64,000 nt of DNA from an uncultured virus (IMG/VR IMGVR_UViG_3300033121_001607) (Duplodnaviria > Heunggongvirae > Uroviricota > Caudoviricetes): IMG/VR virus record IMGVR_UViG_3300033121_001607. One strand, written 5' to 3'. A program made the translations under genes and the position numbers. Under the pieces are notes generated by a model, which had not been told where the DNA came from, made no database searches, and worked only from the letters and a program-made list of their open reading frames with translations. Below, piece after piece: positions 941-15,559 of this stretch. Position 1 is the stretch's first letter. Every line of letters begins with the position of its first letter.

Positions 941-948
941 AAGAAACA

Positions 949-1227
949 CTAACCGTGTTTCTTGGGATCAAATCGTTCTCGAATACCCTTTTCTTTATCA
1001 TGAACCCACTTAGGCCGTGTTTTCCTAATATGGTCACGAACATCGGAACATCTGTCCCAGGCTGGTTTGCTGTCTCTAATAGCTGGCGCACAAATAGCTC
1101 TACGGATTGGCTTGCCGCTTTCAGGGTCAACAGTAAGAGCGTCGGCTTTTATGCTTTGAAAAACCTCAAACGTCTCGCCTGTTGGTTCGCCTTCTTTATC
1201 CAGTATTTCGTATATGTAGGTCGGCAT
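949..1227 (-). CDS. FmdB-family zinc-ribbon-like regulatory protein (variant lacking the CxxC pairs)
   Basis: MPTYIYE...GETFEVFQSIKADALTVDPESGKPIRRAICAPAI matches the FmdB pattern MPxYxY...FE.xQ...DxL..CP..G....R.IS.P without the CxxC pairs. Confidence 0.75.
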   Translation of the reverse strand: MPTYIYEILDKEGEPTGETFEVFQSIKADALTVDPESGKPIRRAICAPAIRDSKPAWDRCSDVRDHIRKTRPKWVHDKEKGIRERFDPKKHG

Positions 1228-1448
1228 TAATTTTTACTATATCCTGCGCATTGAATAACAATGGAAGTAATAAAATTCTTTTTGTACACTTTCCATTCAA
1301 CTTGCCTGCCAAAGACAGTAATTCTTACAGGCTCAATTGGATTTGAACAATCTACTGTTTCGCAATCATTACATAACGGAGATACAACCCCAAGAGGCCC
1401 AACAGGAAGCCTATCAAGAGGAACAAGTTTGCACTTATACTGACTCAC
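1227..1448 (-). CDS. Small Cys-rich hypothetical protein
   Basis: 73 aa with CNDC..DC and QC; abuts or overlaps both neighbours. Confidence 0.7.
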   Translation of the reverse strand: MSQYKCKLVPLDRLPVGPLGVVSPLCNDCETVDCSNPIEPVRITVFGRQVEWKVYKKNFITSIVIQCAGYSKN

Positions 1449-2053
1449 TCGCTATCATCTCTCCTCTTAATTTTCTTTGTTACGTCTTGCGCTTTTTTGA
1501 GAGCAATTTGTCTTTCTTGCAAGATATTTCTTGCTTCTTCTTCAGTAAGTTCAGTTTGATCAGCCGCTGCTGACAGAGACACAGCCGGCGTAGCGCCATC
1601 AATCGCATTTTGAATATCATTCAGCCTTGCTTGCTCTTGACGGATTTGCTCTCTAACAGCCTCGGGATACTCAGATAAATCATCGCCATCATCTTGTTCT
1701 AAATTAACAATGGTTGGTCCATTTGTTATATTTTTGGGCTTAAATATTGGTCTTGAAGAAACCAATCTTGGTCTAGGCAAGGAAGAAGATTTTTGAGCAA
1801 CAGTTTTTTGCACCGGCAAAGAAGCTGAAACAGTTCGTTTGCCCTCAAGGACTCCTTGAGCAATCAAAAAATCGGTTATCTCAGCAAACATCCCAACGGG
1901 AAAGCTGATAGCGATTTCCCCATTTTCGTCTAAAACACCGATAGACATGCCGCAATCAGCGGACTCATAAAGCCTTAGCCAAATGGAGAAAACAGCGTCT
2001 CCATTGACATATTCGTATTCAAAATCTATCTTCTTATTTGACTTGATTGCCAT
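1445..2053 (-). CDS. Hypothetical protein
   Basis: 202-aa ORF in the co-directional gene array; overlaps its neighbours. Confidence 0.75.
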   Translation of the reverse strand: MAIKSNKKIDFEYEYVNGDAVFSIWLRLYESADCGMSIGVLDENGEIAISFPVGMFAEITDFLIAQGVLEGKRTVSASLPVQKTVAQKSSSLPRPRLVSSRPIFKPKNITNGPTIVNLEQDDGDDLSEYPEAVREQIRQEQARLNDIQNAIDGATPAVSLSAAADQTELTEEEARNILQERQIALKKAQDVTKKIKRRDDSE

Positions 2054-2249
2054 TACTATCTCCTAGAATCTTCTTCCTTAAGAACTGCCTTATCTGTCGC
2101 TGCTGTTGCGTCAATCGCTTCTTTATTTCCCTATATATGGGGGCTGGAATTTCGCTTTGTATAAACGTTCCGCATTTAGGACATACTGTTCCATATACAT
2201 TCGATCTTGCCCCCAAACTCGAAAAACAATGAGGACAGATAAAACTCAT
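2034..2249 (-). CDS. Zinc-ribbon protein with basic helical tail
   Basis: CPHC...CPKC pair followed by an Arg/Lys/Gln-rich helix; ATGA overlap with the upstream gene. Confidence 0.7.
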   Translation of the reverse strand: MSFICPHCFSSLGARSNVYGTVCPKCGTFIQSEIPAPIYREIKKRLTQQQRQIRQFLRKKILGDSNGNQVK

Positions 2250-2731
2250 TGCTCATCCTCGTCTAAAACAATATCGTCATTTTCGTCATCGTCGTTATCG
2301 TCTTTGTCAAACGATATCTCTTTTCTATAACCATACTTTTTATCAAGGTATTCTGAATCAACAATATAAGTTTCCCATTCTGATTTCCAAAAAGCCGGCC
2401 ATGAATCAACAACATGAGGCAATGGCTCAGGAGTTTTCCAGCCAAACTCATTACACCAATAAGTCAAACTCTTTATATCTGCATTATGAGCGTCTTTGCT
2501 TGAGGGGAGATATTCAGCTACATAAACTTTACCCGTATTGTAAAAATGACAAATAAGAATTGCGAAGCCAAAAGGGCTCATAATAGTAACTTTTGAACGG
2601 ACCATCCATTCGCCCTTATGACTCGCAACGCCAAGCTCTTCAGCGTCAGCAGCCATAATTTTGCAAACCTTTTCATAGTTACCGTTTGCTTCAAGTAAAG
2701 TTATATCAGAAAACTGAATCTCAAATTCCAT
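2246..2731 (-). CDS. Hypothetical protein with acidic C-terminal tail
   Basis: 161 aa ending DKDDNDDDENDDIVLDEDEQ; abuts the upstream methyltransferase stop. Confidence 0.75.
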   Translation of the reverse strand: MEFEIQFSDITLLEANGNYEKVCKIMAADAEELGVASHKGEWMVRSKVTIMSPFGFAILICHFYNTGKVYVAEYLPSSKDAHNADIKSLTYWCNEFGWKTPEPLPHVVDSWPAFWKSEWETYIVDSEYLDKKYGYRKEISFDKDDNDDDENDDIVLDEDEQ

Positions 2732-3580
2732 TCAACTAATCCTATTTTCTTCAACAGTATTTACCGTCTTTTTATTTTCCTCAATCCTTTTAGACCTTGG
2801 AATGTAATCGTCAAATATGTTAGAAACCGAAGATATTCTTTGCCTTGCATAAACAACATCGGATTCTGAGTTATCAATTCCAATATAGTTTCGACCAAGA
2901 ACTTTAGCCATTAACCCTGTTGTACCAGTCCCCATAAACGGATCGACAACCGTATTTCCTCTATAAGAAAATAACTTGATAACTCTCTTTGCTAACTCTT
3001 CAGGAAATGGCGCTGGATGCCCATTTAGATTTTGAGTTTCTGGCTGAATAAACCATGTAGAAAAAGTCCAGTTTTGGAATTCTTCATTTGTCATATCAGA
3101 AAGCTCGGGGTCTCCCTCAAGCTTCCAACTACCCTTAGACCAAACCATGATATACTCATGATTTCTTCTAATAGCTGGATTAGAACAAGACATATAAGAA
3201 CCAAAAGCAGTTGCCCTACCTGACCAGTTTTGCTTATACCAGCAAATCTCGGTTCTATACTTAAGACCTATTTCTCTACCTATATTAATCAAGTCTCCCG
3301 CAATGGGTCTCATATATTCTTCGTCGTCTTGTCTATTTCTAACCGAATCAATGTTGATTACAAGTCGCCCGCCGTCAACAAGTATTCTCTTGCATTCGAC
3401 AAATATCTTCTTTAGCCAATCAACATACACTTTATATGGATCGTCATCATTACGATTGCGATATCCTTCAAGCTGAATATTGTAAGGTGGAGAAGATAAA
3501 ACAAGATGAACACTCTCGTCAGGTATTTTTTTAAGACCGTCCAAAACATCGTCCAACATAATTGTGTTCAACAAACTCAT
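2732..3580 (-). CDS. DNA methyltransferase, N4-C/N6-A family, beta order (SPPY, probably m4C)
   Basis: Catalytic SSPPY near the N-terminus, then HPAPFPEEL and the SAM-binding motif VVDPFMGTGTT near the C-terminus. Confidence 0.92.
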   Translation of the reverse strand: MSLLNTIMLDDVLDGLKKIPDESVHLVLSSPPYNIQLEGYRNRNDDDPYKVYVDWLKKIFVECKRILVDGGRLVINIDSVRNRQDDEEYMRPIAGDLINIGREIGLKYRTEICWYKQNWSGRATAFGSYMSCSNPAIRRNHEYIMVWSKGSWKLEGDPELSDMTNEEFQNWTFSTWFIQPETQNLNGHPAPFPEELAKRVIKLFSYRGNTVVDPFMGTGTTGLMAKVLGRNYIGIDNSESDVVYARQRISSVSNIFDDYIPRSKRIEENKKTVNTVEENRIS

Positions 3581-3582
3581 GA

Positions 3583-4341
3583 TTACTCCGAGAATATATC
3601 TTTTACTACGTCTAGTCTTTGTTTTGCTAAAGCGATTGCTTCAGTGCTTTTATCGCTTCCAACAGGAAACCTCTTAGCCGCTAACGCTGCTTCTAAAAAA
3701 CTACCGCTACCGCAAAACGGATCTAAAACTCTGTCTCCAGGATTACTCCATATGGAAACCACTCTTTCCATAAGTTTAAGAGGCTTTTGAGTTGCATAGC
3801 CATTCTTTTCGGGCTCATTCCTGCATATGGCAGGAATATCAACCCACCAATCCTCAAGCAACTTACCCCTTTGCTCATAATGTTCCCAAGGGATTTTCTC
3901 TTTTGACCAAGCAGCGGCTCCGCCAACATTCATTTTTGTTTTGTAAGGAACTCTCGGTTGATTAAATGCATATTCTCCAAGACCGTACCATAAGATCGTA
4001 TGGTGCTTCCTAGGGAGCCATCTTTTAGCGCTTGCAGGGTTACTAAAACCCCATATGATTTCGTTCCTGAAATTATCCCTTCCAAAAATCTTGTCCATTG
4101 AAACTTTGACATAATGTATCGCTTTGTAATCCATATGAACTACAATATTTGAGTCCTTCTTCATTAGCTTCTTGATAGCATCTAGCCTATCAGTCATATA
4201 AGAAACAAACTCGTCGAAAGACGAACCAACTCCATAGTATTCGTCTTCAGATTCACAGCTATAAGGAGGATCTAGATACACTAAATCAACAGGCTCCGTT
4301 ACCAGCCCAAGACAATCGGTATTATGAAGCTCATATTTCAT
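3583..4341 (-). CDS. DNA methyltransferase, N6-A/N4-C family, beta order (DPPY)
   Basis: VDLVYLDPPY, FRNEIIW, YATQKPLKLMER and VLDPFCGSGS. Confidence 0.92.
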   Translation of the reverse strand: MKYELHNTDCLGLVTEPVDLVYLDPPYSCESEDEYYGVGSSFDEFVSYMTDRLDAIKKLMKKDSNIVVHMDYKAIHYVKVSMDKIFGRDNFRNEIIWGFSNPASAKRWLPRKHHTILWYGLGEYAFNQPRVPYKTKMNVGGAAAWSKEKIPWEHYEQRGKLLEDWWVDIPAICRNEPEKNGYATQKPLKLMERVVSIWSNPGDRVLDPFCGSGSFLEAALAAKRFPVGSDKSTEAIALAKQRLDVVKDIFSE

Positions 4342-4966
4342 TCTTCTTAGGACCTCTAAGCCTGTCTATCTCTTCTTGTTTCTTTTCAGCCATGTAAATC
4401 TCATATCTTGATTTTGTTCTTGCAGGAAGCCCCTTTACAAGCTTCTCTAGATCGTCCACCCTTTCAACAAGGATGTAGGAATCCACAACCTTGTAGACCT
4501 TTTCCGCTATCTCTAGATCTTTAAGATTGAAACCAACCTTTGACAAGAAGTTATACATATGATTACTTACAAATAGATCGGCAGCAATAATAGATTCCGC
4601 TTTATCAGTCTTTCCTCCGCTTTCTGAATATATAACCAGTTCCCTAACGATAGAATCAACAATATCGTCTAAGCTTATATTTAGACCTGACGATAATTTT
4701 TCTATACTTTCTCTAAGAGTTATCTGTTCATAAGCCGAGACTAGCTGTATAATATTGCCAGCGCTCTTACAGCCAAAACAGTAATAATCTTGTCCATTTG
4801 GTTTATCAAACACAAAGAATGACGGGGTGTTATCATTGACATGAGTAGGTAATGGGCAACGATATTTATATCTCTCAGCGTCATGGCTTTGCCATTGTAT
4901 CCCTTTTAGGGCAAGATAATCAGTTATCTTAATTGATCTTGAAATTGTATCTATTATAGCATTCAT
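4331..4966 (-). CDS. CHC2 zinc-finger protein (DnaG primase N-terminal domain only, no TOPRIM domain)
   Basis: CPLPTHVNDNTPSF...YYCFGCKSAGNIIQLV...ITLRESIEKL is the DnaG zinc-binding domain. The remaining ~110 aa look helical, with no EGxxD or DxD TOPRIM motif. Confidence 0.85.
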   Translation of the reverse strand: MNAIIDTISRSIKITDYLALKGIQWQSHDAERYKYRCPLPTHVNDNTPSFFVFDKPNGQDYYCFGCKSAGNIIQLVSAYEQITLRESIEKLSSGLNISLDDIVDSIVRELVIYSESGGKTDKAESIIAADLFVSNHMYNFLSKVGFNLKDLEIAEKVYKVVDSYILVERVDDLEKLVKGLPARTKSRYEIYMAEKKQEEIDRLRGPKKNEI

Positions 4967-4968
4967 AA

Positions 4969-6549
4969 TTAGTCAAAACCCAAATCGTTTACATTATTAA
5001 CAAGACCCTTTATTGTTTTCTTTACATCACCTTTGCTAAGCATAGGATTAGGCGCTTCTGGCTCAAAAGAAAGATCAAGATCGGGATTCTTTATTACAGC
5101 ATCTTCTGCTTTTTTAATCAAGTCGGACGCTTCTGGATCTCCAAAATCAAACGTCGCTTCAACGGTTGAATAAATTTTACCAATATGGGGATTAACTTCA
5201 AGATCTGCTTTTGACTTATCTTTGTACTGACCGAACATTGTTGAGCCATAACGAGATTTTACGCATACCAGGTAAAGCTTCTCTTTTGGTCTATCAGGAT
5301 GGGGAAACTGAACAAAAATATTATCAGCGTCAGCCGAAAAATCATGAGAACCTCTAAGAGCGTCTGAGCCAACAGTCTGCTTGCCGTCTTTCTGATTACG
5401 AAGCGACTTAATCGCCTCTCTGTTCAACTGAACAGCAGATAAAACAGAAAAGCCCATCTTCCTACCAAGCTGTCTAAGATCCTTGCACATCTGACCGTAC
5501 CAGCTATGCTCGGCAAGCCGCTGATACCAGGGTTCGGGACTTAGAATAGAGATATAGTCAATTACAACAAGTCTTGGTTTGAAGAAATGTTTTCTCTTCT
5601 CAAGTTCCGCTCTAATCTTTGATACGGTCATTCTTTCTTGAGCGTCAAGAATGGCAAACTTAGAACTTATTTTCTTGAACTCGTCACTAGCCTTCTTGAG
5701 CCTTTCTTTTTCTGGCGGCGAAAGCAAACTAGGTTTGCCAATTTTCTCAGAATGAACGTTTGCCTCTCTAGCCATAATTCTCTGCATCAATCTGGCCTTA
5801 GGCATTTCAAGAGAAACATAAAGAACGTCTTCTTGAGAATCTTTACAAACATTCAGAGCGATATTAATCATTGTTGCGGACTTAAATCCGCCAACGTCAG
5901 CAACGATAAGAGTTAGCGCGCCGATATCCAAACCCATTGGCATTGTCTCGTCAAAGGGCTTTATTCCAGTTTGGAGAACTTTCTTTGGATTCGTTATCTC
6001 ATTCTCTAGTTCCGCATACCAGTCGTCTCCGTATTCGGCAACAGTATCCCAAGAAGCAATTTTGCCGTCAATTGAGTTTGAGGTTAGTATGGTAAGCTCT
6101 TCTGTAAGAGAAGAAAGCGAACCCATCCAATCTTTGCCTTTATTGGCGCTAAACCTCTCTATGAGCTTAACAGACCTTTGACGAATAAAACTCTCTCTAA
6201 CTCTCCTGCACATAAGAGAAAAGTCAGTCGAGTCAGTCTTTTCAAAATTCTTTATACCAGTATATATGTCTTTTTCATTACCAACTGCAATTTTCTGACT
6301 CGAAACTTCGCTACCAGTCCATTTGTTATAATCGCCGTTTGCAACAGATTTCGATATGAAATCGTTGTAATACTCTTCAGTAAACGCTTGAGAATCTTGA
6401 TAAGATTGTTCTATCCCTCTAACAAAAGGCCTGTATTTCGCGTCAAAATATTCAATACCAATTTGCTCAGATAAAAAATCAGGTATAAACTCTTGTTTAT
6501 TGGCAACTATGTTGAGTAATTTTTGTTGAGCTTCTGCGTCTGTAATCAT
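4969..6549 (-). CDS. dnaB: Replicative DNA helicase, DnaB family
   Basis: QTGIKPFDE, Walker A IVADVGGFKS, YVSLEM, VVIDYI, SAVQLNR, DADNI and KSRYG. Start moved to ATG 6549 (MITDAE), which forms an ATGA overlap with the upstream stop. Confidence 0.92.
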   Translation of the reverse strand: MITDAEAQQKLLNIVANKQEFIPDFLSEQIGIEYFDAKYRPFVRGIEQSYQDSQAFTEEYYNDFISKSVANGDYNKWTGSEVSSQKIAVGNEKDIYTGIKNFEKTDSTDFSLMCRRVRESFIRQRSVKLIERFSANKGKDWMGSLSSLTEELTILTSNSIDGKIASWDTVAEYGDDWYAELENEITNPKKVLQTGIKPFDETMPMGLDIGALTLIVADVGGFKSATMINIALNVCKDSQEDVLYVSLEMPKARLMQRIMAREANVHSEKIGKPSLLSPPEKERLKKASDEFKKISSKFAILDAQERMTVSKIRAELEKRKHFFKPRLVVIDYISILSPEPWYQRLAEHSWYGQMCKDLRQLGRKMGFSVLSAVQLNREAIKSLRNQKDGKQTVGSDALRGSHDFSADADNIFVQFPHPDRPKEKLYLVCVKSRYGSTMFGQYKDKSKADLEVNPHIGKIYSTVEATFDFGDPEASDLIKKAEDAVIKNPDLDLSFEPEAPNPMLSKGDVKKTIKGLVNNVNDLGFD

Positions 6550-7406
6550 CCTTGCCCCCCAACCTTTATCAGCCATGTATTATTCGCAGAAATGATTTTC
6601 TGAAATGCATAACCCATAAACTTACTATAGTCCTGGGCCTCAACATCAAAATCACAAATCAGAATGGTTGGTAACTTATTTTCAAGTCTTGTTATCAAAA
6701 AGCTTTCAAATAAAGCGACAAAGGATTGATAGTTAAAATCAAGTTCGTTTGCAGGTAGAGTTATGTCGTCGATAACAAGCCAATCGCACTCTTTCAAATC
6801 ATTAGCTTTGTCTGTCTTTTGCTTTAGATCTTGCTTGAGAGTATGGAACGACACCATTGAATATGTATCTGCTCGATTAGAAGCATAGAGTCTTCTCCAT
6901 ATAGCTTCTTTAATAATAAGACTCGCAATAAGAGTCTTACCAGCAGGCAAAGAACGAGAAGAAGCTCCAAGTTTCAAACGAATAGCGTCTCCATGAATAA
7001 TAACATTATCGCCATCATTAAAACGGGCATCCATCTTAGAGGCTTTATTCATAGCCTCTCTAGTTGAAAGCCTAGCTATTTCTTCGCCGTCAAAAAGATA
7101 CTTACGAAGATCGTTTTGTATCCTAACTCGGTCTTCGTTACTCCAAACGGATTGAAGGTTCTTATTTTTGTCAACAACCATTCCGGTTAGATTTTGAATA
7201 CTTAGCTCTCTGTATTGCTCTGGTATTGTATATTCAATGTTGCCTTTGATTTCTGCAAGTTTCCTACAAAGGCAACCATTAGGCCTACTGCACTGGTCTG
7301 CTCCAATATAGTTTTTACAAAACGAAGAACTACTATTTGAATCTTCCCCTGCGGTTTGATACAAATAAAACCTATACTTGCGTATGATTGCAGTCAAATC
7401 AGACAT
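6546..7406 (-). CDS. DnaC/DnaI/IstB-like AAA+ ATPase, putative helicase loader
   Basis: N-terminal Cys cluster (C..C..CLC), IPEQY, Walker A ...AGKT, Walker B DWLVIDDI and RLENKLPTIL; lies directly upstream of dnaB. Confidence 0.75.
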   Translation of the reverse strand: MSDLTAIIRKYRFYLYQTAGEDSNSSSSFCKNYIGADQCSRPNGCLCRKLAEIKGNIEYTIPEQYRELSIQNLTGMVVDKNKNLQSVWSNEDRVRIQNDLRKYLFDGEEIARLSTREAMNKASKMDARFNDGDNVIIHGDAIRLKLGASSRSLPAGKTLIASLIIKEAIWRRLYASNRADTYSMVSFHTLKQDLKQKTDKANDLKECDWLVIDDITLPANELDFNYQSFVALFESFLITRLENKLPTILICDFDVEAQDYSKFMGYAFQKIISANNTWLIKVGGQG

Positions 7407-7412
7407 ATAATG

Positions 7413-7440
7413 TTCTCGACAAAAATAACCCAGCAGTTGC
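7413..7440 (-). promoter_or_regulatory. Possible second sigma28-like promoter, upstream of the loader gene
   Basis: Minus strand GCAAC-N15-GTCGAGAA, then exactly 6 nt to ATG 7406, the same geometry as at dnaE. The -35 match is weak and there is no clear SD. Confidence 0.4.
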
Positions 7441-7452
7441 AGGAAATCACAA

Positions 7453-8778
7453 TCAGCAAGCGCAAAGGATATTATTCAAAAAGATACCACAACTATCGTC
7501 GCACGTTATTGTAAACGTCTTTTCAACTGTAGTGGATTTTATGTTGCGGACTTTGATTCCAACAACAGAAGATTCAACAAGCTTTGATAGAGAAGAACTT
7601 TTGCTTTTCTTTTTAATATACTTGTTCAAATAAGTAGCCATATCATGATTCATAACAACATCGTCTTGTTCAAAAAGAGCAAGCTTCTCATACTTTTCAG
7701 CAGCCATGCCAATTTCTTCCTTGATATTTGAAAGAGATTTACCAAACTTATAACCCAAAAGATCAAAAGCAAAAATATGCTTATTTGTAAGTTTTGTCAT
7801 GAAATCATTAATTTTTATAGCAAGAGATTTGATTAAATAAGGTATAAAAGTGAAAAACGCTTCAATATGACCGCTATCAATAATTATGTAAGAAGAACCG
7901 GATTCAAAAGGCACTATTCCCATGATAAGCAAGCATTTGCAAAGTCTATCAGAAGAAACTTCACCGCCGCGATGTAGAGAAATACAAGGCTTACTATTCT
8001 CTTTGTCAATGAAACCAAAAGCATTGCTTGCATGAAAATATCCGGCAAGATAGTATGCTATAATCTCTTTATTTTGAGAAGCAACTTCTTTCAAGAAAGA
8101 ATCAATCAACATAGCAACAACTTTGTTTTTAGCCCTAACTAAATCCCCGACAATCTCTGGTTCAACAAGAAAATTTGAAGACATAAGATGAGCGAATATA
8201 TTATTCACAATCTCATTGTTAGTGCTAAAAAGGATATCACCATTCTCAAGATTATAGGTTCCTTTGCAATCAATAAGACCGGAAATAAATGCTAATCCAG
8301 TTATAAAGCTAATAGACATAGAAGCGTCTGCCTCATGAATCTTGCCTCCAACTCTTTGCTTTATAAGAGAGCCTTTCTTTTTCTTTGGAAAGACTTTTTC
8401 AATCTGGAAATTGCTCTCTCGAAAAGAAAGGAATTTCGGCATTAAAAGCAAATCCTCAGCAACAAGTTCGTCAACAGAAACCTTATTCAACTCTCCATTT
8501 TCATTGACATAAATCATGCAATCCTTGCGCAGTTCAAGGAAAGAACCAAAGCTCTGTATTCTTAATAACTTTGAAGGTTTCGTTTCAACACAAGACTGAA
8601 TTCGAACAGTCTTTGATTGCCAAGTCTCTTGATCAAAACCGACTACTTGTAAACTGCCATTTTTAAGAATATTTGGCAACTCGGAAACTCGATAACTGTT
8701 TCCATAGACATCGTGCAGAAAAGATTTCCCGCCAACGCCTACAATACTAGAGCTTATCTTGACTTGGCCTTTCGACAT
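7453..8778 (-). CDS. Free-standing, degenerate intein-like protein (HINT plus two LAGLIDADG motifs), no exteins
   Basis: N-terminal HINT-like region (GVGGKSFL...LQVVGFD...LLRIQ...SVDELVAEDLLLMPK), LAGLIDADG-like FISGLIDCKG and YLAGYFHASN, block-H-like LLIMGIVP, and a C-terminal block F/G-like KTFTITCDDSCGIFLNNILCAC followed by the stop. Confidence 0.8.
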   Translation of the reverse strand: MSKGQVKISSSIVGVGGKSFLHDVYGNSYRVSELPNILKNGSLQVVGFDQETWQSKTVRIQSCVETKPSKLLRIQSFGSFLELRKDCMIYVNENGELNKVSVDELVAEDLLLMPKFLSFRESNFQIEKVFPKKKKGSLIKQRVGGKIHEADASMSISFITGLAFISGLIDCKGTYNLENGDILFSTNNEIVNNIFAHLMSSNFLVEPEIVGDLVRAKNKVVAMLIDSFLKEVASQNKEIIAYYLAGYFHASNAFGFIDKENSKPCISLHRGGEVSSDRLCKCLLIMGIVPFESGSSYIIIDSGHIEAFFTFIPYLIKSLAIKINDFMTKLTNKHIFAFDLLGYKFGKSLSNIKEEIGMAAEKYEKLALFEQDDVVMNHDMATYLNKYIKKKSKSSSLSKLVESSVVGIKVRNIKSTTVEKTFTITCDDSCGIFLNNILCAC

Positions 8779-9283
8779 GAGCGTGTTCTCTTAGTGGTTT
8801 GAGTATTACAAAAACAATATTATCTGAAACCTTTAATTCGTCCCATTTTGCAACATCTCCAAGATCAGACACAGCCTTATTGAGAAGTTCTTTTGCATTC
8901 ACAATAAATGCATTCTCTCTTCCCTTTAATTCTATTCCAAATTTAACAAAACATTTCTTTTCTAGCATGGCTCTAATTTTTGTCTTTTTCACTTGAATAT
9001 CATGCTCTCCAGTTTTCAAGTGAAACATCATTTCTTTTGTTTCAATAGGCTTATTGTTGCTTTTTTTCTTTGAGGCTTCAAACTTAAGTTTACCAGCATC
9101 TGCGAATTTACAAATAGGGATACCCTTGTTATCTTTAGAAACCTGAACAAGATCAAAACCTTGTTCCTTCGCTTGGGAAATCGCAGATTTTTTATTAATT
9201 TCCCCCTTGCTAACTCCGTTCTCGTCAATAACAATTACAGAATAGCCATAAATCTCTTCGTTCACAAACATTCTGCCAATCAC
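8747..9283 (-). CDS. infC: Translation initiation factor IF-3
   Basis: VNEEI...VIDENG...AKEQGFDLVQVS...PICKFADAGKLKFE...KEMMF...GEHDIQVK...LKGRE covers both IF3 domains. The SD TAAGGAG is followed by CTT ATT GTG ATT, pointing to a non-AUG start. Confidence 0.92.
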   Translation of the reverse strand: MIGRMFVNEEIYGYSVIVIDENGVSKGEINKKSAISQAKEQGFDLVQVSKDNKGIPICKFADAGKLKFEASKKKSNNKPIETKEMMFHLKTGEHDIQVKKTKIRAMLEKKCFVKFGIELKGRENAFIVNAKELLNKAVSDLGDVAKWDELKVSDNIVFVILKPLREHAHVERPSQDKL

Positions 9284-9293
9284 AATAAGCTCC

Positions 9294-10163
9294 TTAATTC
9301 CTCAAAACGAAAGATATCTCGTTTATCGCTAAACTACTCAATAATGCATCCAATTGTGGATCATAATATTTTTCTGTATACGGAGACATCTTTTTTGTTA
9401 TATCTTTGATTCGATCAATAAATGCCGGTCCTGATTTTGCCGCGTCTTGATAAAAGCTTCGTATTACATCTGCGCTTTCTTTAGAAGATAAGCCTTTATT
9501 TGAAAGCAACCATGAAAAGCAAAAAACAATTCCATAGTTCATAAGAAATGCAACACCGCCAGAGTTATAATACTCTTCAATTTTTGATAGGTCAACTTTG
9601 TTTCCAAGAGCAACAGCTTGTACTTCTTTGTGTTTATTAAGACTTACAAACTTTTGCGAAGCTCTACGAGAACAAAAATCATACAAATCAAAATTCTCAA
9701 CATTCAATTCTTCTTCAACAAACCACTCTATGTATGTTTTTACTATTGAGTTTGACGGAGGGGCAGCTAGTCTTCTTTCAAGCTCTTCTTTGATTCGCTT
9801 TGTAAAACGAGCATGAATCGCCGGACCAATCGTAAGGGAAATTTTATCTCCAAGTCGCTTATCTTTCTTTACACAAAGATATCGAAGATAATTAAACATT
9901 GCTTTATCAGACCAAAGATCTGGATGAATAGTGTTAAAACCCTTTGAAGCCTTTATATCTTTCCATTTACAAACACCAGTTTTTTGTCCATTAGTTTTCT
10001 TGATAGAGGTTGGCCCGTCTACGATTTCAAGTTCGTCCTCTCCAATAATGTCAAGAAGACTATTTTTCTTCTTAGCTTTAGGACTGATTCCCTTATTGGC
10101 ATCTTTTTGACTTTGCGCAAGGATATCGCCCATAAAGTCTTTCGTTTCCGTTTCCGTTTGCAT
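9294..10163 (-). CDS. Hypothetical basic protein in the replication block
   Basis: Long ORF. The SD AGAGGT lies 7 nt before ATG 10163 (MQTETET), so the start was moved from 10196. Confidence 0.75.
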   Translation of the reverse strand: MQTETETKDFMGDILAQSQKDANKGISPKAKKKNSLLDIIGEDELEIVDGPTSIKKTNGQKTGVCKWKDIKASKGFNTIHPDLWSDKAMFNYLRYLCVKKDKRLGDKISLTIGPAIHARFTKRIKEELERRLAAPPSNSIVKTYIEWFVEEELNVENFDLYDFCSRRASQKFVSLNKHKEVQAVALGNKVDLSKIEEYYNSGGVAFLMNYGIVFCFSWLLSNKGLSSKESADVIRSFYQDAAKSGPAFIDRIKDITKKMSPYTEKYYDPQLDALLSSLAINEISFVLRN

Positions 10164-10167
10164 TTTC

Positions 10168-11286
10168 TTACCTCTTTTGGGCATTATTCTGACCAATAAT
10201 CAAGTATTCTACGCCTGATGAATTCTCGGCTGAACGATACTTATAATCATACTGCATCGTCTTAACTATTACGCTTTTTCTAAACTCACCTACTAACTCT
10301 TTAATCGTCTCAATTTCAGCCCAACTACTATCGTTGTAACTAATTGCTAAAATTGCATTTGGATCTAGACTATCTAACAACTGCCAAAAATGATCCTTAT
10401 AAGTTTTGGCTTTTGAAAAAGACTTTGAAGCCGCTTTTAGATATTTAATATCTTCGAAAGATTTTCTAGCTAAGTATTCTTCTAAAAACTGATACATGAA
10501 AGCATAATCGCTTTGCTGTCCGCCATATGGAGGATCAATATAAATAAGATCAAAACTGCGACCAACCATTTTACAAAAATCAAAAACATCATTATTAAAG
10601 AACATCGACGGAGGCCCTTCGCAAGGAAAATAAGAAGGCTTCATTGCCTGAAAATTCATTTCGCTATTATTGTTTCTCTGATGCTGCAAACGATGTTCAA
10701 GAGAAGCAATAATCTGCCCACTATTGAGCCGGCCGCCAACAAAACAATGAGACATAATAAATTGCATCATTGTTGAATGAGCAACACAAGCCCTAACATG
10801 ATCATTTGCAAAGCGCTCTTCTACATTTGTAAAATAACTATCTATAAAGATCGCTTCTTTATCAGTTAAACGAGAACCCGCATGTGTCTTTTCCATAAAG
10901 GAATCAGATTTTGAGTTCTTATTAGATATCAGGAATTTCCAATCTTCGTCGGAAATCTTGTAATTCCAACCTTGAGTCAAAGAAACCCCATTCATGTAAG
11001 AAGAGCGAAGTAGCTCATTAGAGTAGACTTCTTTACCAAACTTTTTGAAAAATGCCCCAACAACGGCAGATCCAGCAAATAGATCAAGCACCGAACTAAA
11101 AGAATCAAAAGGAACTTCATTATTTAGCTCGATGGCAATATCTGCCAAGATTTTGCGCTTATTACCGACATATGGGTTGTTCAAGATATTGAAATCAGAT
11201 TGAGTATTCAAAGCCTTTTCAACGAAAAGCTCTTCTTTGGTTTCAGCAAACAGATTTCCATACTGTTCTCGATTTTTACGAGCCAT
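10168..11286 (-). CDS. DNA adenine methyltransferase (D12/Dam-like, alpha order)
   Basis: NPYVGNKRKI and VLDLFAGSAVV (motif I) near the N-terminus, then DLIYIDPPY (motif IV), ISYND and EYLII. Confidence 0.9.
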   Translation of the reverse strand: MARKNREQYGNLFAETKEELFVEKALNTQSDFNILNNPYVGNKRKILADIAIELNNEVPFDSFSSVLDLFAGSAVVGAFFKKFGKEVYSNELLRSSYMNGVSLTQGWNYKISDEDWKFLISNKNSKSDSFMEKTHAGSRLTDKEAIFIDSYFTNVEERFANDHVRACVAHSTMMQFIMSHCFVGGRLNSGQIIASLEHRLQHQRNNNSEMNFQAMKPSYFPCEGPPSMFFNNDVFDFCKMVGRSFDLIYIDPPYGGQQSDYAFMYQFLEEYLARKSFEDIKYLKAASKSFSKAKTYKDHFWQLLDSLDPNAILAISYNDSSWAEIETIKELVGEFRKSVIVKTMQYDYKYRSAENSSGVEYLIIGQNNAQKR

Positions 11287-12822
11287 TTAGGTTGAACCTT
11301 TGAAATCTTTAATTACGAACTCTGGTTCGGTTTCGTAGATTCTCCGACGCGCTCTACTATGGGCAAGCATGTACTTCATATTATCGTGAAAATCAACAAC
11401 GTAAGCATCCTTTTTCACGAAGCCGGAAGTGGGATCTTCAAAAGTTCTGATTACACGCCCGATTCTTTGCAAAGCTCTGGTTTGAGACTTACCAGAACCC
11501 GCAAGAATAAGACCGTCAAGAGGCCTAACGTCAACTCCTTCGTCAAAGATTGATGTAGCAATAGTAACAGGAATCTTCTTTAATCTCATGTCGTCAATAT
11601 GAGTTTTACGAACTTTGTGACCCTTGCTACCATGAACAAAGAAACTATCAGGAATCATTGATTCCAAAAGCTCGCCATGCTCAATATGACGAACAAGAAT
11701 CAAAACGTGTCTACCCTCTTTGACCATGTTTTGCGCAATATTTCCGATTAACAGATTGCGTTCTTCATTCTGAACAATACCTTCTTTATAAGCTGTTGCA
11801 TAGTTGGTATCTTCGTCCATAGATTTTCGTGTATGAACAAAATAGATGGTTGGCTTAACTAGGATTCCCTTGCGGATAAGAAATGACGCATTAATTTCAT
11901 GAATAAGCTTACCAAAACAAGAATCAATAAGCAAGTCGTCGCCCATGTCTCGCCAAGGAGTTGCTGAGAGTCCAAAACGAAATCTAGCATTAACAGAATG
12001 GTCAGCCAAAACCTGACAGGTCTCAGCAGCCCAGTGTTGAACTTCGTCGCAGATGATTCCTTTCGCATTATGAATAAGAGATGCTATCGCTTCTCTCTTC
12101 TGCTGAAGTTCTTCTGAGATATCTTCTACCTCGTCTTCCTCGTCAAACTTATGATACTTTTCTCCAACCGCCCTAATTGCCGTCTGAACAGTGAGAACAT
12201 TTACGTCTTTAATATCAAACTTACCGCCGCCAATACTACCAACCTTAAGCGGACTCCCATTCTGAAGTAAGAACTTTTCTAACTCATCTTTTGCCTGTCT
12301 AAGCAAGTCGTTAGAAGTTACATAGAAAATAAAAGGAGCAGCGCTTAGCTTTTGGATAATACCAGCGCCTATCGCGGTTTTTCCGCCGCCTGTGGCAACC
12401 TTGATAATGCCTCGCTGCTGATTGACCGCTTTATCAATAACTTCCTGTTGATAGTCTCTAATTTGGAAAGAAGGGCTAGGGGTCAAAACGATATTGTTCG
12501 TCTTTGCTTCTGTTCGTTCGTCAACAGTTGCAACATCAACGCCATAAGCTCTGAAAAACTCAAGCGCTCTACTATATAAACCTGTTGGAAAATGAACACC
12601 ATCTTTCTTAAGAGAACACTTACAGTATTTCTTATTAAAGCATACTGTCGTAACATATCCGTCCCAATTTTTAGCGTTTTTACCTCGCCAAATTGCATTC
12701 GGATCTTTGTAACCAAGAGTTTTCTTGAACTCCTGATAAAGTTCTTTAGTCATCCTGCCAACAACAAACGTTGAAGAGTCCTGAACTCTTAGCGTAATAT
12801 ACGATTCAATTGATGAACTCAT
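11287..12822 (-). CDS. Superfamily 2 DExH helicase (UvsW/XPB/ResIII-like)
   Basis: RDYQ, ATGGGKT, ICDEVQH, GLSATP, IFDEGVD and QRIGRVIR; N-terminal WDG...FPTGL as in T4 UvsW-type phage helicases. Confidence 0.92.
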   Translation of the reverse strand: MSSSIESYITLRVQDSSTFVVGRMTKELYQEFKKTLGYKDPNAIWRGKNAKNWDGYVTTVCFNKKYCKCSLKKDGVHFPTGLYSRALEFFRAYGVDVATVDERTEAKTNNIVLTPSPSFQIRDYQQEVIDKAVNQQRGIIKVATGGGKTAIGAGIIQKLSAAPFIFYVTSNDLLRQAKDELEKFLLQNGSPLKVGSIGGGKFDIKDVNVLTVQTAIRAVGEKYHKFDEEDEVEDISEELQQKREAIASLIHNAKGIICDEVQHWAAETCQVLADHSVNARFRFGLSATPWRDMGDDLLIDSCFGKLIHEINASFLIRKGILVKPTIYFVHTRKSMDEDTNYATAYKEGIVQNEERNLLIGNIAQNMVKEGRHVLILVRHIEHGELLESMIPDSFFVHGSKGHKVRKTHIDDMRLKKIPVTIATSIFDEGVDVRPLDGLILAGSGKSQTRALQRIGRVIRTFEDPTSGFVKKDAYVVDFHDNMKYMLAHSRARRRIYETEPEFVIKDFKGST

Positions 12823-13043
12823 AACATTCCTGATTCGTTGGGTTTTGCGTCAGGCGAATCTACGCCAAGTTGGTAAATCTTGCTCGAAGGAAGTTTGTTC
12901 TTTCTCTTCAACTTATCTTCGATACGGTCAGGCTTGTCAAAAAGAGAAGACTGTCCAGAATCGTTTTCATCTGGAAAGGAGCCTGGCTGTCTCTTAAAAT
13001 CCGAAGACAGCTTTTGAAAACTATTTGTTTGGATTACTTTCAA
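12819..13043 (-). CDS. Small hypothetical protein
   Basis: 74 aa, TTG start with an AAAGGT SD; 4-nt overlap with the helicase start. Confidence 0.6.
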   Translation of the reverse strand: MKVIQTNSFQKLSSDFKRQPGSFPDENDSGQSSLFDKPDRIEDKLKRKNKLPSSKIYQLGVDSPDAKPNESGML

Positions 13044-13272
13044 CGTTAATACCTTTCGCCATCAAATACTGCAATCGCTCTCCTGCAACTGCCCAAAGGT
13101 TGTTAATGCTTTCTTTCGTTCCTGTAATCCTATAAAAAGCATCAATAAAATGACCGTTCCTCATTAGAGGCAAAGTATTCTCAAGATTTGAGTTTTGCTT
13201 TTGCATGGTAGCTACAACTTTTTTAAGGAATTCTATCTCTGACAAATCATTGTAATTTATTTCTTCAGGCAT
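13021..13272 (-). CDS. Small hypothetical helical protein
   Basis: 83 aa with a GGAG SD; co-directional with its neighbours. Confidence 0.7.
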   Translation of the reverse strand: MPEEINYNDLSEIEFLKKVVATMQKQNSNLENTLPLMRNGHFIDAFYRITGTKESINNLWAVAGERLQYLMAKGINVESNPNK

Positions 13273-13284
13273 AATTCTTCTCCA

Positions 13285-14328
13285 TTACCAAACTCTGGTC
13301 TTTGACAAAAGCTGTTGCAGCGTCAAGTTGGGGGACGTAACAAGCTCCTTACTCTGAACTCTAAGCAAAAGCTCAAAAGGAAGTTCGGACATTCCCCTTG
13401 CTCTTCTTTCGGATTCCACCTTTTCCCAGAGATCTTTGCTGAAATCTTTCAAACTCTCTGTAGTAGACCAATCCGGCCCTCTTACAGAATCAATCATTTT
13501 CTCAGTCAACCCTAAAAACCACCAATTACCTGCATATGGATTAGCGGATTGCGCTGTTTTCAGCTTGTCCATCTTTCTTAGACCAAGCGAAGCTTCTTCT
13601 AAATCTTTTGACTGACAAATAAGAGACAAAACTGCTAAGAAGTTTGCAACTTCTTCGTCTTCGCTAAAAGCAAGACCCAAGAAATCCGTTATTCGTTCTC
13701 TCATAAAGAAATTCGAAAACATTTCTCGAATCAAGGCCTCAGGAGAATCTCCTGATTTCATCATAATTCGCAAAGCTTCAACTAATAAAAAAGCAGAACG
13801 AACAGAATTCTTTTCTATGTCAAGATTAACAAATAAATAAGATTCGCCATTGTTGTCGGCCTGAACAACAACATCTAATTCATAAGATTTCTTGGCAACA
13901 ATCCTTATATTCTGCAATTTTAGACTTTTATATGGACAAAAGATGTTTTTTATTAACATCCAAACGGCATGAAACTGATCGAGTTTCATATTGACAACTT
14001 CGTTGTCGTCCTCATAAGACTTCCCGTATTGAGTTTTAAAATCCGCTAGCATTGAAATGAAATATCGCATTAGAGCATAGCGAGCGTCCATGCTACCTAT
14101 GTTCCTGCCGGAAACCGAACCAAGAGCATTTATGTAGACTGAATATATAGAAGCCATAGTATCCAAAACTGACTTGCCTTTACAAAGAACAATTTGACCA
14201 TCTCTCAAAGAGGGAGAATCAACTTCTTCAAAAATAACAGGCAAATCAACGAAATCACAGTCAAGCCTTTTGCATAAAATCTGCAAAGCCTTAGTAACAA
14301 GCAAATAATTACTGATTCTTAGTGTCAT
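13285..14328 (-). CDS. Hypothetical protein
   Basis: 347-aa ORF with no confidently recognised family. Confidence 0.8.
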   Translation of the reverse strand: MTLRISNYLLVTKALQILCKRLDCDFVDLPVIFEEVDSPSLRDGQIVLCKGKSVLDTMASIYSVYINALGSVSGRNIGSMDARYALMRYFISMLADFKTQYGKSYEDDNEVVNMKLDQFHAVWMLIKNIFCPYKSLKLQNIRIVAKKSYELDVVVQADNNGESYLFVNLDIEKNSVRSAFLLVEALRIMMKSGDSPEALIREMFSNFFMRERITDFLGLAFSEDEEVANFLAVLSLICQSKDLEEASLGLRKMDKLKTAQSANPYAGNWWFLGLTEKMIDSVRGPDWSTTESLKDFSKDLWEKVESERRARGMSELPFELLLRVQSKELVTSPNLTLQQLLSKTRVW

Positions 14329-14362
14329 ATCTCTGTATACAAACTTTTATGGCAAACCCCTT

Positions 14363-15559
14363 TTAATCTCTATTATACTTGAGGTTGACATTGTAGGTCC
14401 AAGTGATACCATGTCCGGGATGGACGCCAAAAAGCTTCTGCTCTGGCAGGTTTCCAGGCATATTATTACTTAAAGAATAAACATCTCCTCCAACAAATGA
14501 GCCATTTACAATAGCCTTACCGCTATGAGTTGTGAACTCGGAGGCGTTATGAAAGTGCCCCGCAATAGTGTAATCAGGAATAATTTTGGTCAAGCCTGCC
14601 ATTCTCTTTTCAAGCTCAAATACACCCTTAACCGGCGGGTCTTTAGATTTGACATCATCACCGTGAATCATGAGAAACTTATGCTTCTGTATTTCTTTGA
14701 TCATCCACCAAGATTTTGTTGAATGTATCTTGAGTCTAGGCTCATTGCGGAATTCTTGTTCAAGATTCTTATAACAAATGTAGTCAAAGTTTGCATATTT
14801 CTTCTCTGCACCACTCTGGGCAATACGTCCATGATTTCCGTAAATAGCATAGAACTCAACTTCTTGAAAAATACTAAGCATATAATGAACGAAGTTTGAA
14901 ATATGGTAACAACCAAGCGAGATTTGGTCCATAATTGGTGTATTTATCCAAACTGGAGACCATGCGCCTGCTGTATTAGCTCCATCAACAATATCTCCAA
15001 GAGACATAATATGAAGCTTGGGTATCCTATACAGGCTTGAATGTAGTTCGTAAATATTAGTTATTGCTTGCTTAAGATTTTCCAAACGTTGAATAAAAAT
15101 GTCTACATTATATTCAGATAATCCGCCTGTTTCTTCAAGCGTATGCTCATGGCCTATATGAAGATCGCTAAGGACGAGAACCATATGCTCGTCTGCTTTA
15201 CTAGTCTTTGGAGTAGGGGTATAAAGAGGCGGCGGAACAGCGGGGAGATTTCTAGCAGCTTGAGTAATCTTATCGCCAATGATGTCGGCGCTAAGCCTAA
15301 ACTTGTCCAAAGCCTTATTAACAAAAACCTGCTGTTTTACTGCGCCGGTCTCTATTTCCTCGCGCTTAGCGTCTACTTCCTCTTGATTATAGAAGCTGTA
15401 ACTTGTCCAATCGGTATCTCGATTGTACTTATTCTCCAAAGCCTTTACTGTTCTATCAAGCTTCTCGGCAATAACTTTATACGGAGTACCAAGCATTCTT
15501 TCCTTATAAAGGTATTCAAGTTCTTCTTCGGTCCATTTTCTAGTTTCAAAGTTTGACAT
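14363..15559 (-). CDS. Calcineurin-like metallophosphoesterase with N-terminal Myb/HTH-like domain
   Basis: RKWTEEE...IAEKLDRT (HTH), then SDLHIG, LGDIVDG, GNHGR, IHGD and AGHFH. Confidence 0.88.
   Translation of the reverse strand: MSNFETRKWTEEELEYLYKERMLGTPYKVIAEKLDRTVKALENKYNRDTDWTSYSFYNQEEVDAKREEIETGAVKQQVFVNKALDKFRLSADIIGDKITQAARNLPAVPPPLYTPTPKTSKADEHMVLVLSDLHIGHEHTLEETGGLSEYNVDIFIQRLENLKQAITNIYELHSSLYRIPKLHIMSLGDIVDGANTAGAWSPVWINTPIMDQISLGCYHISNFVHYMLSIFQEVEFYAIYGNHGRIAQSGAEKKYANFDYICYKNLEQEFRNEPRLKIHSTKSWWMIKEIQKHKFLMIHGDDVKSKDPPVKGVFELEKRMAGLTKIIPDYTIAGHFHNASEFTTHSGKAIVNGSFVGGDVYSLSNNMPGNLPEQKLFGVHPGHGITWTYNVNLKYNRD

Follow-up and report, generated by a model that had tools for sequence, protein, structure and literature searches.

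We describe a gene of an uncultured member of the Caudoviricetes, here called X, that encodes a free-standing homologue of a whole intein. It has lost the catalytic residues for both splicing and DNA cleavage, and it is maintained intact, by purifying selection, at a conserved position among replication genes. We lean, modestly, towards reading X as the inactive descendant of an AAA+ ATPase intein that retains the full intein fold under selection and probably acts as a non-catalytic nucleic-acid binder. "Domesticated intein", a possibility raised in the first-pass annotation, is a fair reading, because X is an intact intein homologue standing alone, its catalytic residues are lost, and both purifying selection and conserved synteny are seen. 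The roles suggested along with that name have fared less well: no target for a decoy was found, and the evidence for DNA binding is mixed.

Locus, fold and ancestry of X

The window analysed is the whole 64,000-nucleotide stretch of IMG/VR record IMGVR_UViG_3300033121_001607 (Table 1). From its ATG start the X ORF runs for 441 amino acids with zero internal stops, uninterrupted as first described. It is flanked by genes for IF3 and a helicase loader, not by the halves of an ATPase, and family matches identify the same infC, loader, DnaB and primase neighbours that had been named from the sequence. The 3' end of the IF3 gene overlaps the start of X by 32 nt, and the two are probably co-expressed through this overlap. 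A frameshift fusion of IF3 and X was considered and rejected, the 41-nt in-frame overlap, inspected by eye, being without a canonical slippery heptamer. Near X there is no excess of promoter-like sites (11 versus 12.4 in shuffles) or terminator-like sites (2 versus 2.2). The X sequence is found in RNA libraries, where such presence is no proof of transcription.

Table 1. Coordinates of X, its parts and its neighbours in the window.
Feature	Position	Strand	Details
Gene X, 441-aa extein-less intein homologue, stop codon included	7453..8778	-	ORF, homology, fold
Leader, residues 1-13	8740..8778	-	probably left over from the end of the AAA+ N-extein, with one residue fewer
Hint N-terminal half, residues 14-125	8404..8739	-	Gly14 at Cys1 site; R84/C87 at block B Thr/His; dN/dS 0.077
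Linker, residues 126-154	8317..8403	-	
LAGLIDADG domain, two-lobed, residues 155-336	7771..8316	-	motif 1 8260-8280, motif 2 8023-8046; acidic residue absent from both
Helical accessory domain, residues 337-402	7573..7770	-	located where inteins have the ACD; weak resemblance to lambda repressor/Xre
Hint C-terminal half, residues 403-441	7456..7572	-	T423 at block F Asp, C430 at block F His, A440-C441 at His-Asn
TGA stop at the +1 extein position	7453..7455	-	TGA in 4/4 loci
Spacer between X and loader gene, 46 nt, conserved	7407..7452	-	
IF3 (infC-like) phage gene	8747..9283	-	PF05198 + PF00707
Helicase loader, DnaC-like	6546..7406	-	phrog_50
Helicase, DnaB-like	4969..6576	-	PF03796
Primase zinc-ribbon protein	4331..4966	-	PF01807

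The AlphaFold model of X is confident throughout (pLDDT 91.0, pTM 0.91), and in it X is predicted to fold as a complete three-part intein, with Hint, LAGLIDADG and accessory domains. Its best structural match is the TliVMA intein (Foldseek E 4e-15; Z 29.4, rmsd 3.4, 375 residues aligned over model residues 13-441), and whole inteins align to the model at Z 23-29. Mini-inteins superpose over 136-142 residues (Z 17-19, rmsd 1.5-2.1), which identifies the Hint fold, while I-DmoI aligns with model residues 156-325 (Z 15.6, Foldseek probability 1.0), which identifies the two-lobed LAGLIDADG fold. The model thus contains the Hint domain and the two LAGLIDADG subdomains that the first-pass annotation had predicted.

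Searches with the single X sequence against Pfam, PHROGs and PDB were sub-threshold or empty (Intein_splicing E 0.0063, LAGLIDADG_3 E 0.14), and tblastn against 50,697 phage records returned no match. Because these single-sequence family searches stay below threshold, homology is drawn from relatives, a profile and the fold. X aligns end to end, with 37% identity (E 2e-87), to canonical inteins known from other metagenomic proteins, where they interrupt a Cdc48-like AAA+ ATPase immediately ahead of Walker B; taken with the fold, this bears out the early description of X as matching a full bifunctional intein over its entire length. There are 19 relatives at E <= 0.001, of which 11 are embedded in AAA+ ATPases with canonical AP|C junctions, nine of these also having an [HK]N|C junction at the C-terminal side. 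When a profile made from the free-standing proteins only was searched against PDB, 20 sequences matched, 17 of them named inteins and three short chains named after intein hosts, and the matches to solved inteins span both Hint halves. Scans of viral contigs with the deeper free-standing relatives P0008, P0012 and P0019, and of genome contigs with P0017, gave no match.

Residues were assigned by aligning X in register with nine embedded inteins cut out of their hosts. The Cys1 position is Gly14, invariant in the family (7/7), with no Cys, Ser or Thr at residue 1 of the intein. The block B motif T..(D/N)H has become R84..C87 (Q, H or R and C, S or V in the orthologues), the block F Asp and His are T423 and C430, and the terminal His-Asn is A440-C441, followed immediately by the stop, which leaves no +1 nucleophile. 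In this register the substitutions first noticed in blocks A, B and F and at the terminal His-Asn are all upheld, as are the leader of about 13 residues and the stop placed exactly at +1. The alternative nucleophile that the available text of Tori & Perler (2011, PMC3196547) gives for class 3 inteins, a Cys at block F position 4, is also absent, this site being T423 in X and Asn in P0007. Splicing should no longer be possible for X, which lacks a C-extein as well as the residue-1 nucleophile, the block B His, the block F Asp and the terminal Asn. GVGGKS was considered as a P-loop and rejected, its Lys being Asn or Cys in orthologues. A metal site formed by the Cys cluster at the dead splicing site was rejected too, since C430 alone is invariant, whereas each of C87, C426, C439 and C441 is replaced in one or more orthologues.

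The acidic residues that end the LAGLIDADG motifs are metal ligands essential to these endonucleases, for which PhoVMA provides an example. In X, motif 1 is GLIDCKG, with Lys172 at position 8, and motif 2 is AGYFHASN, with His at position 6 and Ser251 at position 8. Both motifs are invariant, so that Lys172 and Ser251 replace the acidic ligands in 7/7 proteins and the loss originally read from GLIDCKG and GYFHASN applies to the whole family. With both motif-end acidic residues gone, X would be incapable of DNA cleavage of the canonical two-metal kind. These residues are already missing from P0009 and P0010, sister inteins that are still embedded.

X does not have the organization of an in-frame host insertion: it has a 13-aa leader and a +1 stop, and no extein similarity was found in the 64-kb window. 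Exteins were lost at least twice within the AAA+ ATPase intein family, as shown by a tree together with an AU test (p 8e-15). The leader is probably a relic of the ATPase N-extein, judging from its similarity to that sequence: the observed score was reached by 0-6 of 2000 shuffles in five close orthologues and by 72 of 2000 in P0006, although the leader orthologues belong to one lineage and are therefore effectively one observation. The window and the records of two relatives yielded no host-ATPase orthologue; in the latter a 994-aa host query matched only X. A PF00004 search found two distant AAA proteins in the relatives' records; with 24-29% identity over ~200 residues and no motif resembling the insertion site, these are paralogues and not the host gene.

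We propose that the ancestor of X was a class-1 LAGLIDADG intein that interrupted a phage Cdc48-like AAA+ ATPase shortly before its Walker B motif. The two exteins would have been lost, with about a dozen N-extein residues remaining as the leader and the +1 Cys codon replaced by a stop codon. Purifying selection keeps X at a constant site within the replication/early gene block, where it most likely now serves as a non-catalytic binding protein, an ordinary phage gene.

Conservation and possible ligand

Six orthologues of X, 435-441 aa long and down to 48% identical, were found, and none of the seven family members has a frameshift or stop. Synteny around X is identical in the four genomes for which DNA is available (4/4). 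Over the six pairs from these genomes (dS 0.73-1.18), dN/dS is 0.055-0.133 with a mean of 0.096, compared with 0.083 for IF3; by domain it ranges from 0.05 to 0.16, the C-terminal Hint half having 0.102. X is thus intact, not decaying, and under purifying selection, and the orthologues and dN/dS that the first-pass annotation had proposed as a check agree with it. Purifying selection would also be expected of an element that is still selfish. The annotation had also raised an assembly error as a possible refutation, which is contradicted by the IF3-X-loader order shared by four assemblies from different collections and by contigs from other runs and studies that bridge both X junctions with no indels or joints.

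The domains of X differ in what they suggest about binding. The LAGLIDADG domain is mildly acidic (pI 5.9, net charge -3; pI 5.3-6.4 in orthologues), unlike that of the sole relative with an intact DGDG motif, which has a net charge of +22; this acidity argues against DNA binding through the saddle. In this it resembles the domain of PhoVMA, which is described in the available text of Beyer et al. (2022, PMC8966425) as having a decayed endonuclease domain of pI 5.45 that keeps its fold and does not bind DNA. The accessory domain of X is basic (pI 8.2, with orthologues reaching 9.7) and has the lowest dN/dS of all domains (0.050). For residues 337-402 the best Foldseek match is non-significant (E 1.4), and 22 of the 23 matches listed bind DNA, almost all of them being lambda-repressor/Xre-type proteins. 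The VIA comparison of this domain is likewise non-significant for an HTH (best Z 4.0), and Pfam HTH_3, run on six accessory segments, reached E 0.055 and 0.072 in two embedded relatives only, with nothing in that of X itself. Within the first-pass description of the sequence, the HTH-like segment is thus the one element that stays tentative. According to the same text, the equivalent domain in TliVMA and PI-TkoII is HTH-like, and its deletion lowered DNA binding (PMC8966425).

DNA binding by X is plausible on these mixed grounds, given an accessory domain that is basic, bears a weak likeness to an HTH and is under the strongest constraint. Most probably the ligand would be a nucleic acid, which the basic accessory domain would contact while the LAGLIDADG core served as scaffold. 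The idea that X acts as a decoy protecting intein target sites is unsupported, because neither the window nor a 334-kb relative yielded an orthologue of the host ATPase or a copy of its insertion-site motif. In one relative a live intein sits in the helicase three genes away, despite the presence of X.

Alternative explanations

X could still be a selfish homing gene of the WHO type, sitting downstream of IF3 and co-converting this neighbour by means of an active site outside the canonical kind or with the help of a partner nuclease, which we regard as improbable. WHO elements, in the available text of Coughlan et al. (2020, PMC7282813), are extein-less and lie downstream of a gene whose 3' end they replace. 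Between L001 and L002, two relatives that are otherwise near-identical, a divergent tract extends from ~185 nt before IF3 to the 3' end of X, with 93-100% identity in the flanks, 88-90% in IF3 and 82-84% in X, and X has a dS of 0.73 against 0.05-0.19 in flanking genes. This hints at allele exchange, and recurrent extein loss in this intein family and the colonization of the lineage by live inteins are also in keeping with a selfish X. The tract, however, spans all of IF3 and not its 3' end alone. Both catalytic acidic residues are replaced, the replacements are invariant, the LAGLIDADG domain is acidic, and the acidic residues were already missing from the embedded sisters. Moreover, X is single-copy and intact in 4/4 genomes, without pseudogenes, tandem copies or duplicated IF3 fragments. 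A loader-protein scan for empty IF3-loader junctions returned only two contigs that were already known. Exaptation as a protein-binding module, with the Hint fold or the LAGLIDADG saddle docking a replisome or translation partner, is unlikely, if slightly less so; in its favour are the acidity of the LAGLIDADG domain, Hint halves as constrained as the rest of the protein, conserved substitutions at the former splicing site that include the invariant C430, and tight linkage to IF3 and the loader. Against it, the most constrained part of X is the basic accessory domain, which contributes to DNA contacts in related inteins, as described in the available text of PMC8966425.

The remaining explanations are far less probable. 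Were X an artefact, it would be a true intein that misassembly, gene miscalls or an alternative genetic code had stripped of its exteins. This reading draws only on the general expectation that contigs from metagenomes may be chimeric; with four assemblies in the same order, bridging contigs, flanks that are not ATPase halves and table-11 ORFs as long as 3258 aa, we give it almost no credence. Catalytically dead LAGLIDADG proteins can serve as intron maturases, and this precedent would allow X to be a maturase-like RNA chaperone of a phage intron. We find this very unlikely, as the 64-kb window gave no Rfam match that reached gathering score, positions 1-15000 gave none even at E <= 0.1, and tRNA genes were absent. 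There is similarly little chance that X is a decaying remnant awaiting deletion, like the pseudogene Arth_1007, in which, from the available text of PMC3196547, 66 aa of extein are left and splicing is abolished. The loss of all catalytic residues fits such a remnant, but a dN/dS of ~0.1 at a dS of ~0.9 contradicts it, as do full length in 7/7 proteins down to 48% identity, the lack of frameshifts and stops, and a model that is confident throughout.

Relation to known systems

The usual view of inteins is that of parasites which go on homing or else decay and vanish. To our knowledge, accepted cases of an intein turning into a host gene are very few, and the textbook one, yeast HO, has kept its nuclease. 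X, if exapted, goes beyond HO, because the splicing and nuclease chemistries have both been discarded and the entire fold is still selected. Like X, HO and WHO are intein-derived, extein-less independent genes; the WHO genes lie directly downstream of a host gene and HO is domesticated (Coughlan et al. 2020, PMC7282813). In the same text, available in part, they differ from X in having an active LAGLIDADG endonuclease and a C-terminal zinc finger with Cys-X-X-Cys repeats, and in having no motif G (PMC7282813). X is viral, has neither the zinc finger nor the acidic residues of the endonuclease, and ends at the last intein residue, with a mutated motif G region that is still recognizable.

The closest comparison is with the canonical inteins of phage Cdc48-like AAA+ ATPases (P0009, P0010 and nine others), which are homologous to X over the whole length and have the same domain order. 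Unlike X, they are in frame with their hosts and keep Cys1, the block B His, the block F Asp, the terminal Asn and the +1 Cys; the penultimate His is also kept, except in P0023 (Lys-Asn). The order of Hint-N, HEN, accessory domain and Hint-C is likewise found in TliVMA and PhoVMA, which in the available text are splicing-competent and reside inside VMA (Beyer et al. 2022, PMC8966425). Arth_1007 of Arthrobacter sp. FB24 resembles X as a non-splicing intein of phage origin with almost no extein and no block B His; as far as the available text goes, it is a single locus read as a pseudogene, and it retained endonuclease aspartates, which the authors mutated (Tori & Perler 2011, PMC3196547). X, in contrast, belongs to a conserved family with purifying selection and fixed synteny. 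WhiA shares with X a two-lobed LAGLIDADG scaffold without catalytic residues that has been reused as a non-nuclease, and its structures (3hyi, 8dy9) align with model residues 155-336 at Z 16.4-16.9. WhiA, however, has no Hint domain, and its HTH is a separate C-terminal domain outside the structural match; the Pfam WhiA family has no match in X at E <= 1. We found no description of a conserved extein-less phage intein in the full-text literature outside subscription journals, and a preprint on actinobacteriophage inteins, in its available part, deals with unusual endonucleases and not with extein loss.

One annotation source labels such genes "intein/homing endonuclease", a pipeline label that misstates the capabilities of genes like X. 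In our judgement it is an evenly balanced question whether large uncultivated phages have exapted a whole bifunctional intein as a non-enzymatic protein of the replication/early module, by extein loss that occurred at least twice from one AAA+ family; this would make X the first viral or prokaryotic counterpart of HO. X and its relatives provide a dated series in which the course of exaptation can be studied and which runs from an embedded live intein, through an embedded intein with a dead nuclease, to a free-standing protein that is doubly dead. A complete intein scaffold is under selection in a virus without its host protein and, it would seem, without either of its activities, apparently having arisen more than once from the same ancestor, and what uses the intein fold may have besides splicing and cutting can be tested directly with one small protein.

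Homology and predicted fold of gene X

Gene X is an unbroken ORF of 441 codons with an ATG start, and belongs to a co-directional run that encodes a PHP-domain protein, two DNA methylases, a primase zinc-ribbon protein, DnaB, a DnaC-like loader, X, IF3, a 300-aa ORF, a D12-type methylase and a ResIII/SNF2-type helicase. Past the helicase end come glycosyltransferases and giant ORFs, the longest of 3258 aa; the giant ORFs probably encode proteins of the virion or for host recognition, in what would be a large phage. The phage carries its own translation initiation factor, IF3, whose gene end overlaps the start of X by 32 nt in all four genomes available as DNA (the window, two IMG/VR contigs and one metagenome contig). 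The 46-nt spacer that sets X apart from the loader is well conserved across these genomes despite an X dS of ~0.9, and may contain a signal for translation or transcription. The phage is remote from all isolates: its DnaB is closest to those of Akkermansia phages, at only 28% identity, and a tblastn search of 50,697 phage records gives no match to X.

Features of the X locus and of related contigs (window coordinates unless a contig is named)
Feature	Location	Strand	Details
Gene X	7453–8778	−	
X–loader spacer	7407–7452		46–47 nt in four genomes
Cysteines of X, residues 87, 426, 430, 439, 441	7456–8520		include former block B His, block F His and terminal Asn positions
IF3 gene	8747–9283	−	IF3_N 4e-16, IF3_C 9e-14; phrog_9787
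Three DNA methyltransferase genes (two N6_N4_Mtase, one D12-class)	2732–4341 and 10168–11286	−	≤9 kb from replication block
Intein-free helicase allele	11287–12822	−	511 aa; also in L002 and L006
Giant ORFs of 3258, 2759 and 2382 aa	18312–28088, 38812–47091, 53921–61069	−	Kelch, Laminin_G_3, fn3, Ig-like or DUF642 domains; several glycosyltransferases alongside
Mosaic tract, IF3 and X	~7500–9480 (~5284–7283 in L001/L002)		right edge at X 3′ end
ResIII/SNF2-type helicase with live intein	L001:571–3492	+	973 aa; P-loop, GGGK/C...HN/T
UvrD-like helicase with live intein	L005:181–3129	+	P-loop, GSGK/C...HN/T

As a single sequence, X scores below curated cut-offs throughout (Pfam Intein_splicing E 0.0063, LAGLIDADG_3 E 0.14, PI-PkoII E 0.21). 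Searched exhaustively with phmmer, 1.84 billion representatives yield 19 relatives at E ≤ 0.001: 11 embedded in longer proteins, six free-standing (440–478 aa) and two short (P0011, 281 aa, running one residue past the end of the intein, and P0020, 243 aa). The hosts of the embedded relatives are PF00004 AAA ATPases closest to Cdc48/p97, and the embedded segments clear the Intein_splicing cut-off (E 8e-22 to 1e-30). The canonical AP/C N-terminal junction is found in 11 of 11; in nine the C-terminal junction is present too, with Cys and the Walker B sequence after it, and the remaining two stop short of it. The top embedded relatives, P0009 (E 2e-87) and P0010 (E 2e-82), share 37% identity with X. 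A profile made solely from 14 free-standing or fragmentary proteins matches 20 PDB sequences, comprising 17 named inteins and three short chains named after intein host proteins.

The first-pass annotation had aligned X by eye, end to end, with a full bifunctional intein. Alignment in register with the embedded inteins bears this out from residue 14 through the last residue, as does the fold. An AlphaFold model (25-row alignment; pLDDT 91.0, pTM 0.91), expected to show HINT plus two LAGLIDADG domains, ranks whole bifunctional inteins first in Foldseek (TliVMA 4e-15, PI-PkoII 1.8e-14, PI-PfuI 5e-13, then PI-SceI), with I-DmoI and WhiA below them. TliVMA superposes with Z 29.4 and rmsd 3.4 Å over 375 residues (VIA-align), model residues 13–441 matching chain residues 0–429. 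Mini-inteins fit the Hint half at 1.5–2.1 Å, while similarity to WhiA and I-DmoI is limited to residues 155–336.

The substitutions proposed by eye are likewise all present in the register alignment. Cys1 is replaced by Gly14, the block B Thr and His by R84 and C87, the block F Asp and His by T423 and C430, and the terminal His-Asn by A440-C441, with a stop codon at +1. The motif-end acidic residue is missing from both LAGLIDADG motifs (GLIDCKG and AGYFHASN). Splicing would be impossible, since X has neither a C-extein nor a nucleophile, and the alternative class 3 nucleophile (Cys at block F position 4) is missing too; DNA cleavage by the canonical mechanism would be very unlikely. Among the splicing-site cysteines only C430 is invariant, and a metal or disulfide site is conceivable, if unsupported.

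Maintenance of the gene and the local mosaic

Six orthologues of 435–441 aa share 48–81% identity with X and conserve its substituted catalytic positions, in keeping with the earlier claim of a gene kept intact without frameshift or internal stop. Gene order from the helicase to past DnaB is identical in four of four genomes. Across their six pairs, dN/dS (Nei–Gojobori) is 0.055–0.133 (mean 0.096; dS 0.73–1.18), as against 0.083 for IF3, 0.046 for DnaB and 0.012 for the loader. All domains are constrained (Hint-N 0.077, LAGLIDADG 0.118, accessory 0.050, Hint-C 0.102). Contigs of other sequencing studies span the loader–X junction, and others the X–IF3 overlap, with no indels or joints. X is thus maintained, not decaying, and these data exclude, within their reach, both an assembly error and a pseudogene. 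The X stretch is also present in four metatranscriptome libraries of one study, which is no proof of transcription.

Between contigs L001 and L002 the flanks are 93–100% identical, whereas a tract from ~185 nt upstream of IF3 to the X 3′ end is 82–90% identical, with an X dS of 0.73 versus 0.05–0.19 in flanking genes; this IF3–X tract is a recombination mosaic. It recalls the yeast WHO elements, described as extein-less, intein-derived genes that directly follow a host gene and replace its 3′ end (Coughlan et al. 2020, PMC7282813), and X could be a selfish element of this kind. We consider this unlikely, as WHO homing requires an active endonuclease, while the motif-end acidic residues of X are missing, and leaves behind tandem copies, pseudogenes and fragments of genes, of which the four genomes show none.

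Origin of X and live inteins among its relatives

A maximum-likelihood tree of 22 rows unites X with nine further free-standing proteins (97/96), and the sister of this clade is the embedded pair P0009 and P0010 (100/100). Another free-standing group (P0016, P0019, P0017) is placed among other embedded inteins; the starred branches require at least two state changes, and a single clade of all free-standing rows is rejected (AU test p 8e-15, lnL difference 159). We infer that the extein was lost independently at least twice, because regain of every catalytic residue and of the exact insertion site is implausible. Nuclease loss probably came before liberation from the host, since P0009 and P0010 already lack the LAGLIDADG acidic residues. 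The 13-residue leader of the close family of X resembles the ATPase N-extein end, one residue shorter; its score is matched by 0–6 of 2000 composition-preserving shuffles in five close orthologues and by 72 of 2000 in P0006, effectively one observation because the six proteins are one lineage. The same test gives no signal in other free-standing lineages. The stop is TGA at all four loci, a single substitution from a Cys codon, which is compatible with, though it cannot prove, a nonsense change at the +1 Cys. No host ATPase orthologue was found in the window or in two incomplete records of relatives, 334 kb and 101 kb long (66% and 13% complete by CheckV estimate), which contain only distant AAA paralogues (24–29% identity over ~200 residues) that lack the insertion-site motif.

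Inteins have heavily colonised this lineage. Three genes from X, the L001 helicase carries a canonical live intein with intact LAGLIDADG aspartates (LAGLIDADG_3 6e-14, Intein_splicing 2e-10); with the intein-free alleles, this makes a presence/absence polymorphism of the homing type. The record to which L001 belongs has a second live intein, in L005, also with intact LAGLIDADG motifs, and the 334-kb relative adds an Intein_splicing match that passes the cut-off, in a 1015-aa ORF, and two weaker matches. The P0010 and P0023 ATPase records open inside a second mini-intein-like segment ending HN/CGKS at Walker A, so some hosts carry two inteins, one at Walker A and another ahead of Walker B; P0010 has two Intein_splicing stretches in Pfam. 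P0023 alone in the family has a DGDG motif together with a strongly basic LAGLIDADG domain (net +22), and ends Lys-Asn, not His-Asn; it is the likeliest of these inteins to be a homing endonuclease that is still active. P0013 retains a single acidic residue, in motif 1, but its LAGLIDADG domain is acidic.

Possible role and comparison with known systems

Residues 337–402 of X sit between the endonuclease domain and Hint-C, the position described for an intein accessory domain. This domain is reported as HTH-like in TliVMA and PI-TkoII, and its removal from TliVMA as reducing DNA binding (Beyer et al. 2022, PMC8966425). In X it is the domain of lowest dN/dS, and in the close family it is basic (pI 8.2–9.7). 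Modelled alone (pLDDT 77), it has no significant Foldseek match (best E 1.4), with 22 of 23 listed rows being DNA-binding proteins, nearly all of lambda-repressor/Xre type; the best VIA Z, 4.0, is under the tool's reliability bar, and the only Pfam HTH_3 hits come from two embedded relatives (E 0.055 and 0.072). The LAGLIDADG domain of X is acidic (pI 5.9, net −3), unlike that of P0023 and like the PhoVMA domain, which is described as decayed and not binding DNA (Beyer et al. 2022, PMC8966425); this acidity counts against DNA binding through the saddle. Taken together, these features lead us, with moderate confidence, to regard X as a non-catalytic binding protein, its ligand most likely nucleic acid held through the accessory domain, with a protein-binding role as a serious rival.

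In full-text literature searches we found no phage described as having a conserved extein-less intein. The nearest printed case, Arth_1007, is presented as a single locus judged a pseudogene by its authors (Tori & Perler 2011, PMC3196547), whereas X has conserved orthologues. On defining features X belongs neither to the inteins (it lacks exteins and the catalytic set) nor to the LAGLIDADG endonucleases (it lacks the acidic residues), WhiA (it has a Hint domain) or the HO/WHO proteins (it lacks the zinc finger and the nuclease residues). X would work like a domesticated derivative of intein/endonuclease elements.
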